64,000 nucleotides of DNA from NCBI GenBank assembly GCA_963760615.1, contig CAVXDX010000014.1:1-64000 (forward strand), given 5' to 3'. This DNA comes from an uncultured Candidatus Micrarchaeota archaeon. Its GTDB lineage: Archaea; Micrarchaeota; Micrarchaeia; Burarchaeales; Fermentimicrarchaeaceae. Under the pieces are notes generated by a model that had not been told where the DNA came from, did not search any database, and worked only from the letters and a program-made list of their open reading frames with translations. A program made the translations under genes and the position numbers. This document shows positions 2,544-30,973 of this stretch, piece by piece (positions within the stretch are counted from its first letter, which is position 1; each line of letters starts with the position of its first letter).

Positions 2544-2780
2544 CTAGGGGAATTTCTTCCTGAAGTATAAACCTTCCAGCTTCTTCAAGTCGTCAAGCGG
2601 TTTCTCATTGGTTTTTGCAACCCAGACTTCTTTTGTTTCTTCGTTCTCCAGGATAAGCTGGTGCATACTGCTATCTTTTGAGAAATGGCAGTGCGGAGGC
2701 ATGTAGTGGTGGTGCCAGAGTATATTTTTTCTGGTCATCTCAACAGCTTTATTTACAATCTCGGTTGTTGACGTATCCAT
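2544..2780 (-). CDS. Hypothetical His-rich small protein (78 aa)
   Basis: ORF from ATG 2780 with WHHHYMPPHCHF segment; convergent with hsp20. Confidence 0.65.
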   Translation of the reverse strand: MDTSTTEIVNKAVEMTRKNILWHHHYMPPHCHFSKDSSMHQLILENEETKEVWVAKTNEKPLDDLKKLEGLYFRKKFP

Positions 2781-2811: not shown

Positions 2812-2898
2812 TTCACTGGCAAGTTACCCCCCTTCCGCCTATTTAAATACCCCAAGAAGCCACCTCTTTAGCAGTAAAGAGGTGATTGAGATGAAAAT
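2812..2898. repeat. 87-bp dispersed repeat, copy 1 (TATA box + 10-bp inverted repeat + SD + first codons)
   Basis: Base-for-base identical to 26079-26165; contains TTTAAATA (2842-2849), CACCTCTTTA-gcag-TAAAGAGGTG (2861-2884) and ATG 2891. Confidence 0.97.
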
Positions 2899-3064
2899 GG
2901 ATATAAGCAAGCTCAAGGATGAGGAAATTGACCAGCTCATATCATTCCTCGACAGGAGGAACATAACTTCCTTTGTGAAGAGGAATGGGGAAACGCTGAT
3001 GCTAGTGTGCAAATCGACCCCCATAAGACCTGCAAGACTTGAGCTGGGAATTGAGAACATATAA
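2891..3064 (+). CDS. Microprotein (57 aa), paralog of 26158-26283
   Basis: GAGGTGA SD 5 nt before ATG; 14/41 residues identical to the second copy. Confidence 0.8.
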   Translation: MKMDISKLKDEEIDQLISFLDRRNITSFVKRNGETLMLVCKSTPIRPARLELGIENI

Positions 3065-3135
3065 TTTTTTTCTTTTTTCTTCTATTTTTTCAGAAAACTA
3101 TATTAAGCGGCAGAAAGTCAATCTATTCGATTTGA

Positions 3136-26078: not shown

Positions 26079-26165
26079 TTCACTGGCAAGTTACCCCCCT
26101 TCCGCCTATTTAAATACCCCAAGAAGCCACCTCTTTAGCAGTAAAGAGGTGATTGAGATGAAAAT
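26079..26165. repeat. 87-bp dispersed repeat, copy 2
   Basis: Identical to 2812-2898, same orientation. Confidence 0.97.
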
Positions 26166-26283
26166 TGACATCGCGAAACTGACATTGAATGAAGTAGAGG
26201 CTCTCGCCGAGAGGCTCAAGATAGGTAATGTTTCCACCGTGATACAGAGGAGAGGGGATAGACTGGTGCTTGATGTTAGCTAG
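26158..26283 (+). CDS. Microprotein (41 aa), paralog of 2891-3064; not in the ORF track
   Basis: MKIDIAKLTLNEVEALAERLKIGNVSTVIQRRGDRLVLDVS; same promoter/SD module as copy 1. Confidence 0.8.
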   Translation: MKIDIAKLTLNEVEALAERLKIGNVSTVIQRRGDRLVLDVS

Positions 26284-29302: not shown

Positions 29303-30973
29303 CTATTGCTTCTTCCTCTTGAGCAGCTTCTTCACGCCCCAGTACACAAGCAGGGCGAGGGCAGCTAGGGTTACAACAGATGCAATAATGTATGGAAGAA
29401 TATCCACAACTTTCATAACTTTTATGCTGAGAGTTTGAGCCCGGTAGCCCTCCTTGCTGACTGTGAAGTTGAAATTACCATCCACATCGGATTTTATGAA
29501 GTTGCCGCTCTCATCTCTAGAGACAACTCCATTCTCATCGCCCCTGTAGGTTCTGCCGAATATTGTCACTTCAGGGTAGGGCACAGGATTTCCTTCAGTA
29601 TCATTGACTTCAAAAATTACGGGTATTCCAACCACCACTGATTTTTGGTATGAGACGACCAGCTCCTTCTCCTCAGCCTTGCTTCTGAATCTGACGATGA
29701 CGCTGGGATAGGGTGGAGCTTCAATGTTGTCAAGAGCATCAACGCTTCTTGCTTCAAACATATACTCTCCATCCTCCAGTGAGGAGGTGTCCCAGGCATA
29801 GCTCCAGTTTGTTGTTCCGCTGGCGTTCTCCCAAGCACCCAGCTTCAACCTTACCTGAACGTATTTTACTCCTGCATCTGCGTATGCCGTGCCATTTATG
29901 GAGACCGGCGAGCCCACAACGTTCATCTCCTGGGAGGGGAAGCTGGTGCGCACTGTGGATACGGCGTAGAGGTTTCCGTCATAAGAGCCGACGTAGAGCA
30001 TTCCATTGCGCACAAGAGGAGTTGAGATGACCCAGTTTCCGGTTTCAAATCTCCATGCCACGCTGCCGGTCAGGTTCGCAGCATAGACGTTATTATCGCT
30101 GGTGCCGAAATAGATGAACTTGGAGTCGTCGTCATAGCGGACTGATGACTGCGCCTCGGTTCCAGTCGTTATGTTCCAGAACCTGCTGCCATCGGCTGCG
30201 TATACAGCGTATACATTGCCATCCCTGCAGGTGAAGTACAGCATATTATTGGGTGAGACTGCAAAACTTGATTGGATTTTGCCGGGAAACCTCTGCTTCC
30301 AGACCAGTGTTCCATTGAAGGTATTGAAGGCGTATAGGGTACCGTCGTCAGAGCCCACGTAGAGAATAAAGTTTGAAGCGATTGGCGAGGAGGCGAAGGG
30401 CGCCTCTCCGGAATAGTTCCACACCATCTTTCCAGTCTTTGGGCTGAATGTGTATACACTGCCATCAGTTGAGTCGAAGTACAGGAGGCCATAGGCAAGG
30501 AGTGGTGCAGAGAGTATCTTGTCACCCGTCTGGAATTTCCATGCCAGGCTTCCGTTCAGCATGAGGGCATAGAGGTATCCATCATTTGAGCCAAAGAAGA
30601 CCATGTCATCGGAAACTGCAGGGGAGGAGAGGATGATGCCTCCTGTCTGGAATTTCCATGCCAGGCTTCCGTTCAGCATGAGGGCATAGAGGTATCCATC
30701 ATTTGAGCCAAAGAAGACCATGTCATCGGAAACTGCAGGGGAGGATTCCAGCCTGCCTACTGTCCCGTAGTTCCAGAGGGAAATTCCAGTGGTTGAGTTG
30801 ACAGCATAGAAATTGCCGTTTGCAGAGCCAAAGAAGAGGACATCGCCGCGAATTGCCAGTGATGTAACTATGTAGTCGTTTGCATTGAACATCCACTTTA
30901 TGCCCTCCAGCCCAACAGCCTGTTGCGCGGAGAGGAGCGGGATGAAAAGCAGTATGAGCAGGAACTTCTTCAT
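29303..30973 (-). CDS. PQQ-binding-like (BamB-type) beta-propeller surface protein with Ig-like domain and C-terminal anchor
   Basis: Signal peptide; repeats SSPAV...FFGS.DG.LYA...G...W.F.TG; C-terminal TM + basic tail. Confidence 0.88.
   Translation of the reverse strand: MKKFLLILLFIPLLSAQQAVGLEGIKWMFNANDYIVTSLAIRGDVLFFGSANGNFYAVNSTTGISLWNYGTVGRLESSPAVSDDMVFFGSNDGYLYALMLNGSLAWKFQTGGIILSSPAVSDDMVFFGSNDGYLYALMLNGSLAWKFQTGDKILSAPLLAYGLLYFDSTDGSVYTFSPKTGKMVWNYSGEAPFASSPIASNFILYVGSDDGTLYAFNTFNGTLVWKQRFPGKIQSSFAVSPNNMLYFTCRDGNVYAVYAADGSRFWNITTGTEAQSSVRYDDDSKFIYFGTSDNNVYAANLTGSVAWRFETGNWVISTPLVRNGMLYVGSYDGNLYAVSTVRTSFPSQEMNVVGSPVSINGTAYADAGVKYVQVRLKLGAWENASGTTNWSYAWDTSSLEDGEYMFEARSVDALDNIEAPPYPSVIVRFRSKAEEKELVVSYQKSVVVGIPVIFEVNDTEGNPVPYPEVTIFGRTYRGDENGVVSRDESGNFIKSDVDGNFNFTVSKEGYRAQTLSIKVMKVVDILPYIIASVVTLAALALLVYWGVKKLLKRKKQ
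30528..30745. repeat. Intragenic tandem duplication: two identical 101-bp blocks, period 117 bp
   Basis: 30528-30628 equals 30645-30745; encodes SSPAVSDDMVFFGSNDGYLYALMLNGSLAWKFQT twice. Confidence 0.93.

Follow-up and report, generated by a model that had tools for sequence, protein, structure and literature searches.

How do two stretches of DNA some 23 kb apart come to be identical in every letter when the genes that they precede have long since diverged? The question is posed by a 64,000-nt sequence (positions 1–64,000 of contig CAVXDX010000014.1, assembly GCA_963760615.1), referred to here as the window, from a member of the Micrarchaeota (DPANN archaea) in the Ca. Fermentimicrarchaeum group whose genome (G000) comprises 1.14 Mb in 16 contigs and is 91% complete. 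Sequence comparison within the window gave 87 of 87 identical nucleotides between positions 2812–2898 and 26079–26165, a match that stretches to 93 nt at 98% identity in a repeat search; an exact repeat of 87 nt is not expected by chance within 64 kb. An earlier note, made from the letters alone, had pointed out this repeat and its end 8 nt into two ORFs, and both observations hold. To our knowledge, almost nothing is known about the control of transcription in uncultivated Micrarchaeota.

The explanation that we favor, to which as a whole we assign a probability of about 0.6, is that the 87 nt constitute a complete and self-contained archaeal expression cassette, consisting of an upstream box, a TATA box, a transcription start predicted to lie in the loop of a hairpin, an SD sequence, and the ATG. 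The identity of the two copies, the nature of the box, and the function of the hairpin are separate matters, and they are argued with different degrees of confidence below.

Layout of the Cassette

The identity between the copies ends on the right after ATGAAAAT, 8 nt inside ORFs A and B, and begins on the left precisely where a motif found at other places in the genome has its first base. The features of both loci are as follows.

2812..2898 (+): cassette copy 1 (upstream box, TATA box, inverted repeat, SD, and first 8 nt of ORF A); identical over 87 nt to 26079–26165, with an orthologous cassette kept before gene A in relatives
2812..2835 (+): upstream box, a UAS-like 24-mer with its core CTGGCAAGTTACCCC at 2816–2830, recognized by the genome-wide recurrence of the core
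2840..2849 (+): TATA box; the 8-mer TTTAAATA (2842–2849), invariant in 28 cassettes, lies inside the palindrome TATTTAAATA
2861..2870 (+): left arm of the inverted repeat, CACCTCTTTA (anti-SD), complementary to 2875–2884 at 10 of 10 positions; predicted at about −12 to −3
2871..2874 (+): loop GCAG, with the transcription start predicted at about 2872/2873 from the TATA-to-start calibration and a conserved C-purine
2875..2884 (+): right arm of the inverted repeat, TAAAGAGGTG, containing the SD GAGGTGAT (2879–2886), with 4 nt between it and the ATG at 2891; all 28 cassettes have AGAGGTG unchanged
2891..3064 (+): gene A, a 57-aa microprotein with a beta-alpha-beta-beta core and a disordered tail bearing a conserved C-terminal motif (from homologues, synteny, dN/dS, and AlphaFold)
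3062..3093 (+): T-rich stretch 3′ of gene A with runs of 6–7 T, read from the sequence as a likely archaeal terminator
26079..26165 (+): cassette copy 2, identical to copy 1 at an offset of +23267 (box 26079–26102, TATA 26109–26116, left arm 26128–26137, loop 26138–26141, right arm/SD 26142–26151)
26158..26283 (+): gene B, a 41-aa microprotein with the same beta-alpha-beta-beta core and no tail (from orthologues, dN/dS, and predicted topology)

Oligo-T is a signal for the termination of transcription in archaea. Copy 2 starts 15 nt past the stop codon of a co-directional ORF for a 394-aa membrane protein, and the gap contains no T-run. The perfect 10-bp inverted repeat with the SD as its right arm, and the TATA box that can be read on both strands, had likewise been described before; the arms do pair throughout, and the 10 nt at 2840–2849 are indeed a palindrome. 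The window contains repeated sequence of a different kind in a 556-aa ORF at 29303–30973 (−), where three copies of a 117-nt (39-codon) unit, 62–79% identical and two of them in tandem, lie at 29976–30695.

Two Old Paralogous Microproteins

Proteins A and B are identical at 14 of 38 aligned residues (BLASTP, E 7e-8) and are thus true but old paralogues, as supposed when the repeat was first described as a promoter/leader module before two diverged microprotein genes. No third paralogue was found in the genome by tblastn. Homologues of gene A that are 68–96% identical occur in Micrarchaeota, including Ca. Fermentimicrarchaeum limneticum Sv326, and gene A keeps its place among relatives in the order HisRS – MJ0538-like – Hsp20 – A – Yip1 – TrpRS. 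All seven genomes of two genera (g1, that of the window, and g2) have an orthologue of gene B, and even a distant orthologue still adjoins the convergent ribosomal stalk genes rpP1/L10/L1. Ratios of dN/dS amount to 0.04–0.23 for gene A and 0.10–0.28 for gene B, which suggests that both are translated genes under purifying selection. This selection on the ORFs, and an Rfam search that gave no match at E up to 1 over both cassette loci and the loci of partial matches, speak against the earlier alternative of a structured noncoding RNA.

The family is small and narrowly distributed. It was found in 24 of 41 related genomes searched, with two copies in genera g1 and g2 only and a single copy elsewhere, and a profile search of 1.84 billion representative proteins recovered just 20 clusters. 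All of these are 39–88 aa in length except for one spurious long protein, and nearly all begin with MKMD or a close variant. The long protein (P0030), a match of 1,415 aa with sigma-70 domains, was judged to be a spurious match to a repeat or coiled coil.

Structure prediction, proposed previously for both peptides, gave a common beta-alpha-beta-beta core. In the AlphaFold model of protein A, a strand-helix-strand-strand arrangement (pLDDT about 90 or more over residues 1–40) is followed by a disordered tail, and the topology predicted for protein B is the same. Searches with A and B found no significant match in Pfam, a best E of 0.17 in a sequence-profile search of the PDB, and a best E of 0.05 with Foldseek against the PDB; a wide VIA-align search reached a best Z of 5.2, which is within the range of common arrangements, and a feature search of the ESM Atlas gave scores below 0.8. 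The nearest shape in the ESM Atlas was the ferredoxin-like domain of DAHP synthase (TM about 0.63 over 44 residues), a fold that is too small for function to be deduced from it. The predicted complex of A and B scored 0.01, a value that counts neither for nor against binding. The A-type tail (residues 42–57; gene at window 2891–3061), which the B-type lacks, ends in a conserved E-L/F-G-I-x-N-I sequence resembling a short docking motif. In many of the more distant members of the family (P0027–P0039), the end is instead an acidic stretch with a terminal Trp or Tyr.

The Upstream Box

The cassette opens with a box of 15–24 nt whose consensus is CTGG[A/C]AAGYTACCCC, and a consensus TATA box comes at a fixed distance, 24 or 26 nt, from the start of the core. 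At up to 2 mismatches, its core matches 27 places in the genome, versus 1 for the reversed control, and the TATA 8-mer follows 18 of these 27 at a distance of 23, 24, or 26 nt from the start of the core, always in the same orientation. In the cassette the distance is 26 nt, as in other promoters of that box subtype. Counts of the core per genome are 16–30 in g1, 8 in g2, and 0–2 in the 34 other relatives searched.

Among the genes behind the box are several TnpB genes (OrfB_IS605/Cas12f-like), which belong to more than one family, and also Nre, an MCM gene containing an intein, SMC, a gene for a PIN protein, and unknowns; the TnpB, Nre, MCM, SMC, and PIN assignments are confirmed by Pfam. A replication and chromosome-maintenance regulon shared with TnpB elements is possible. 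Box and TATA stand, among other places in this genome, before MCM with an intein/LAGLIDADG insert, SMC, and Nre (C8:127838–130318, L073; C8:15871–18414, L074; C3:144978–146297, L070). Among the TnpB copies homology begins at the box, which is thus both the left end of the TnpB element and its promoter.

In other genera, most single-copy homologues of the microprotein gene have a related box (CAC[T/C]GGAAA, a few bases, and a C-run) about 10 nt before the TATA box, and in one genome with a single-copy gene the variant box is unique to the microprotein promoter. The most economical reading of these sequences is that the box is older than its spread: it would have served at first as the transcription-factor site of the microprotein family and would have been taken up later by TnpB elements and then, directly or through them, by other promoters. 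We consider it probable that the box is the ancestral control element of the gene family and the binding site of a transcription activator. In this genus, box and TATA are also found before TnpB transposons, several host genes, and a structured RNA present in four copies.

The structured RNA, of about 200 nt, lies behind the same box and TATA at C16:2256(+), C8:7652(+), C8:167295(+), and C3:83604(−) of this genome (L079–L082). RNAalifold gave 55 pairs, 19 of which have compensatory double changes among only four sequences. The copies all end in ...GGGCATGTCAC and then diverge completely, and an Rfam search of the four loci returned nothing but a chance miRNA match. In having a scaffold and a variable 3′ tail the family is like the omega/reRNA of TnpB, but it stands alone.

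One variant of the box core, with A changed to C (CTGGCAAG...), is confined to this genome, where it stands at C14:2816, C14:26083, C14:116849(−), and C16:2260. These positions belong to the two cassettes, a TnpB promoter, and a promoter of the structured RNA, each of the subtype with 26-nt spacing, and their common variant suggests that sequence has been exchanged among box-bearing promoters beyond the A/B pair.

Several further observations concern the surroundings of the box. At five loci (C3:56192(+), C8:174281(+), and before C3:83604, C3:134697, and C7:56539) it comes immediately after a conserved sequence of about 22 nt (GGCTTTGCRCATAAATTCAC...), and two of these loci run on into a short element ending in GGGAGCATGTCAC; the conserved sequences probably represent the termini of some other repeat or IS unit next to the box. 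A contig labelled as a deltaproteobacterial MAG (JAISFP010000417.1, L047) contains an exact 22-nt match to the box followed by no TATA, SD, or microprotein gene, and this match is due to chance or to a mis-binned fragment. The box also resembles mini-ORB sequences; the intergenic region before the orc1/cdc6 gene has no copy of the box, and the idea of an origin recognition box was therefore dropped.

A palindromic TATA box might be used in both directions. Against this, the neighbor upstream runs the same way as the cassette at 13 of 14 loci, and the only divergent gene has a TATA-like element of its own. A 78-aa ORF of no known family (window 2547–2780, −) is divergent from copy 1, and a 79-aa gene is annotated at this place in relatives; since an A/T-rich TATA-like element lies about 29 nt before its ATG, the ORF need not use the palindrome of the cassette.

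Concerted Evolution of the Two Cassettes

The earlier note had suggested that the cassette be looked for in relatives. A DNA search of 40 of them found two full cassettes per genome, 26–42 kb apart, in all five genomes of g1 and in one of g2, and an exact-pattern scan of public genomes again gave two cassettes per Micrarchaeota genome. In every case, over seven genomes and two genera, there is one cassette before an A gene and one before a B gene. The suspicion that one copy might be an assembly artefact can be dismissed: both copies are on one contig, and both loci, with cassette and conserved neighbors, are present in six relatives, including the closed chromosome of Sv326 (CP058998). This conservation of the two-locus arrangement excludes recent duplication, recent insertion, and assembly error.

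Within a genome the two cassettes are 100, 99, 98, 95, and 99% identical in five cases; those of Sv326 (G002) and G006 are only 80 and 84% alike, which counts against conversion being universal. Orthologous cassettes of different genomes are 79–96% identical. The similarity is confined to the cassette, as the A and B coding DNAs are about 55–62% alike and the 60 nt upstream of the two cassettes are unrelated (39–55%). Both copies carry derived states peculiar to their genome, for example the A-to-C change and an extra T in the genome studied here and, in G003, a left arm with C changed to G. The maximum-likelihood tree of the cassettes groups them by genome and needs 7 changes of the A/B label, and monophyly of the A cassettes is rejected by the AU test (delta lnL 77.9, p 1.4e-9). 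In the tree of the coding sequences, A and B each form one clade with 100/100 support. The right end of the shared tract varies among genomes from 8 to 14 nt into the ORF, and it is this variable end (8 or 14 nt) that makes B start with MKI or MKM, the third codon toggling between Ile and Met.

These patterns very probably reflect concerted evolution by gene conversion limited to the promoter and leader, in addition to purifying selection, and the suggestion in the earlier note that gene conversion keeps the copies identical is upheld by the trees, the within-genome identities, and the shared derived states. Conversion between the two loci would repeatedly homogenize about 90 nt of promoter and leader while the coding parts stay distinct; the two cassettes would be identical because recombination between the loci keeps re-copying the sequence. 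The same confinement explains why noncoding DNA looked more conserved than coding DNA. That paradox dissolves when genomes are compared, as orthologous cassettes do differ, by 4–29%, and the homogenized copies are those within one genome.

Two other accounts of the identity deserve consideration. Purifying selection alone, with no recombination, would also keep functional sites alike, and its traces are evident: box, TATA, and SD are invariant in 28 cassettes, and divergence of the cassettes between genomes is well below synonymous divergence (e.g., 10% between G000 and G001, at a pS of 0.43). Selection does not, however, account for the same genome-specific states in both copies at variable positions of the spacer, loop, and arm, nor for the rejection of the orthology tree by the AU test; moreover, the first 120 coding nucleotides of gene A are 98% identical between G004 and G005, whereas their cassettes are 85% identical between these genomes and 95–99% within each. 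We hold selection alone to be scarcely credible. Nearly as improbable is the recent insertion of a mobile cassette, in which a solo left end of a TnpB (IS200/IS605-type) element would have landed before both genes. What the earlier note called a mobile promoter cassette is correct in so far as the first 24 nt and the TATA also bound several TnpB copies of this genome on the left and supply their promoter, and the A-to-C variant is common to both cassettes, one TnpB promoter, and one RNA promoter. The claim of mobility is contradicted by the A and B loci themselves, where synteny and cassette alike are preserved throughout the seven genomes of the two genera, and by the single-copy homologue of other genera, which already has the box. 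The hairpin and leader are absent from the TnpB promoters, a search for Y1 transposase (PF01797) found none in the 91%-complete genome, and no tnpB gene lies beside the cassette loci in the window.

Start Site and Inverted Repeat

The distance from the first T of the TATA 8-mer to the ATG of long ORFs has a sharp genome-wide peak at 28–31 nt, with its maximum at 30 (44 cases versus about 13 expected). A peak of this kind is characteristic of leaderless mRNAs, and it sets the start site at TATA + 30. So calibrated, transcription of the cassette is predicted to begin at about 2872/2873 (26139/26140 in copy 2), inside the loop of the hairpin, where the 28-cassette alignment has a nearly invariant C (column 61) followed by a purine. 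With the start in the loop, the left arm (about −12 to −3) would not be transcribed from the cassette's own promoter, and folding gives the predicted transcript an unstructured 18-nt leader with a free SD.

The inverted repeat itself (2861–2870 and 2875–2884, loop GCAG) has a folding energy of −14.3 kcal/mol and a z-score of −3.8, and none of 200 shuffled sequences folds as well. Across 27 distinct cassettes, 87.6% of hairpin cells are paired, versus 40–62% with a slid 3′ partner, and the left arm is more conserved than the adjacent spacer. Changes in the left arm are mostly C-to-U and preserve a G.U pair; the change in both copies of G003, C-to-G, breaks a pair. No pair has changed on both sides in a compensatory way, because the function of the right arm as SD keeps it constant. 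The distance between the arm cores ranges from 14 to 18 nt among relatives, which fits pairing in a single strand and argues against a dimeric DNA operator.

Occlusion of the SD by an upstream arm is neither a general design in this genome nor an old trait of the family. Among the 1,196 candidate starts of SD type in the genome, these two alone are preceded within 33 nt by a perfect anti-SD 8-mer. The SD of 16 distant homologues paired no better than in shuffled controls, with fewer than 5 of 200 shuffles reaching the observed pairing in one of them only; the hairpin is hence a feature of two genera and not of the family.

As to what lies upstream, at 13 of 14 loci an open frame in the same direction, at least 80 codons long, terminates no more than 124 nt before the cassette. 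At 8 loci the gap is no more than 15 nt, and mostly there is no run of 5 T, so that read-through into the cassette is plausible; in annotated records Hsp20 or Nre precedes A. The inverted repeat may therefore be of consequence in RNA, as an insulator of the kind that the earlier note had envisaged: transcripts from the cassette's own promoter would start in the loop and have a free SD, read-through transcripts from the co-directional upstream gene would contain both arms and have the SD hidden, and the microproteins would be made only when the box-dependent promoter fires. We give slightly less than even odds to this reading, which we nevertheless favor over the others.

Other functions of the inverted repeat can be weighed against the same data. 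If transcription started upstream of the left arm, the hairpin would be part of the genes' own mRNA and would lower translation constitutively or conditionally, in the manner of the IS200 tnpA leader or an RNA thermometer. Leader stem-loops that sequester the SD are well documented (e.g., IS200 tnpA; PMC4513863), the stem here is stable at the energy given above, and gene A adjoins an Hsp20 gene. There are, however, only 11 nt between the TATA box and the left arm, the calibration for this genome puts starts about 30 nt downstream from the first TATA nucleotide, no other TATA-like element stands at the right distance upstream, and Rfam has no match, so we rate such a leader as rather unlikely. 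Somewhat less likely still is the operator that had been offered as an alternative, where a dimeric repressor would bind the dyad centered on the start site and block recruitment of RNA polymerase. Its appeal is that the center of the dyad (2872/2873) coincides with the predicted +1, that many archaeal repressors bind between TATA and +1, and that compensatory changes of the kind expected in RNA are missing. A dimer with fixed half-sites would not tolerate an arm-core spacing that varies (18, 17, 16, 15, and 14 nt) among close relatives that keep the arms, nor does it fit the asymmetry of the changes, C-to-T on the left with no mirror change on the right; the right arm, moreover, is already accounted for by its role as SD. 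The remaining alternative is that the hairpin has no function, or does something else.

Implications and Comparison with Known Systems

If the insulator reading is right and the start does lie in the loop, the locus would offer an archaeal parallel to IS10, with protection against read-through translation on a host gene. The case is of wider interest in that homogenization affects some 90 nt of promoter and leader before two old paralogues and leaves their coding sequences distinct, and in that it defines a cis-element found across an order of Micrarchaeota, with a small candidate regulon of microproteins, MCM, SMC, Nre, TnpB elements, and a new structured RNA. A promoter common to transposons and host genes also provides a handle on TnpB expression in DPANN archaea. 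A bolder scheme, which we think improbable, is that the A and B proteins themselves recognize the CACYGGAAA...CCCC box in their own promoters. This would be an autoregulatory loop older than the order, which TnpB transposons and the guide-RNA-like structured RNA would have joined by capturing the box in two genera; duplication would have given A, with its C-terminal docking tail, and a tail-less modulator B, and gene conversion would keep their expression matched.

No description of this specific box, of the microprotein family, or of gene conversion restricted to promoter and leader was found in the literature searched. The cassette is not a new kind of system; upstream activating sequences, SD-sequestering stem-loops, fold-back protection, and concerted evolution all have precedents. 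Among archaeal upstream activating elements are the Ptr2 and GvpE sites. In the Phhp promoter of Pyrococcus yayanosii, an upstream activating sequence is bound by HhpR (PMC11705074). The box is like such promoters in being an element just upstream of BRE/TATA, with fixed orientation and spacing and several copies per genome. It is unlike Phhp/HhpR in that its sequence is unrelated, it is also found on TnpB transposons, and throughout an order it goes with a single microprotein family.

Translation of the IS10 and IS50 transposases is reportedly inhibited by a fold-back in read-through transcripts, work that is ascribed to Davis, Simons and Kleckner in 1985 and to Schulz and Reznikoff in 1991. 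As in those elements, the inverted repeat would straddle the start of the element's own transcript (predicted here), and transcripts from outside would alone contain both arms and hide the ribosome-binding site. Here, in contrast, the start is predicted, the TnpB genes that share the box have no hairpin, and what the hairpin would guard is no transposase but two conserved host microprotein genes in an archaeon. The leader of IS200 tnpA has a stable stem-loop in its own 5′UTR that pairs an anti-SD stretch with a near-consensus SD (PMC4513863). The present hairpin is likewise a stable stem-loop in which an anti-SD is paired with a near-consensus SD, but its left arm is predicted to lie upstream of +1, whereas the stem-loop of IS200 tnpA is inside the 5′UTR.

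Concerted evolution is familiar from bacterial tufA/tufB, from rRNA operons, and from gene conversion in polyploid archaea. The two cassettes share with these classical cases copies that are closer within a genome than between orthologues, variable tract ends, and discordant trees. They differ in that the converted tract spans some 90 nt, promoter and leader only, and ends within the first few codons of the gene, and the coding sequences behind it are old, distinct, and separately conserved.
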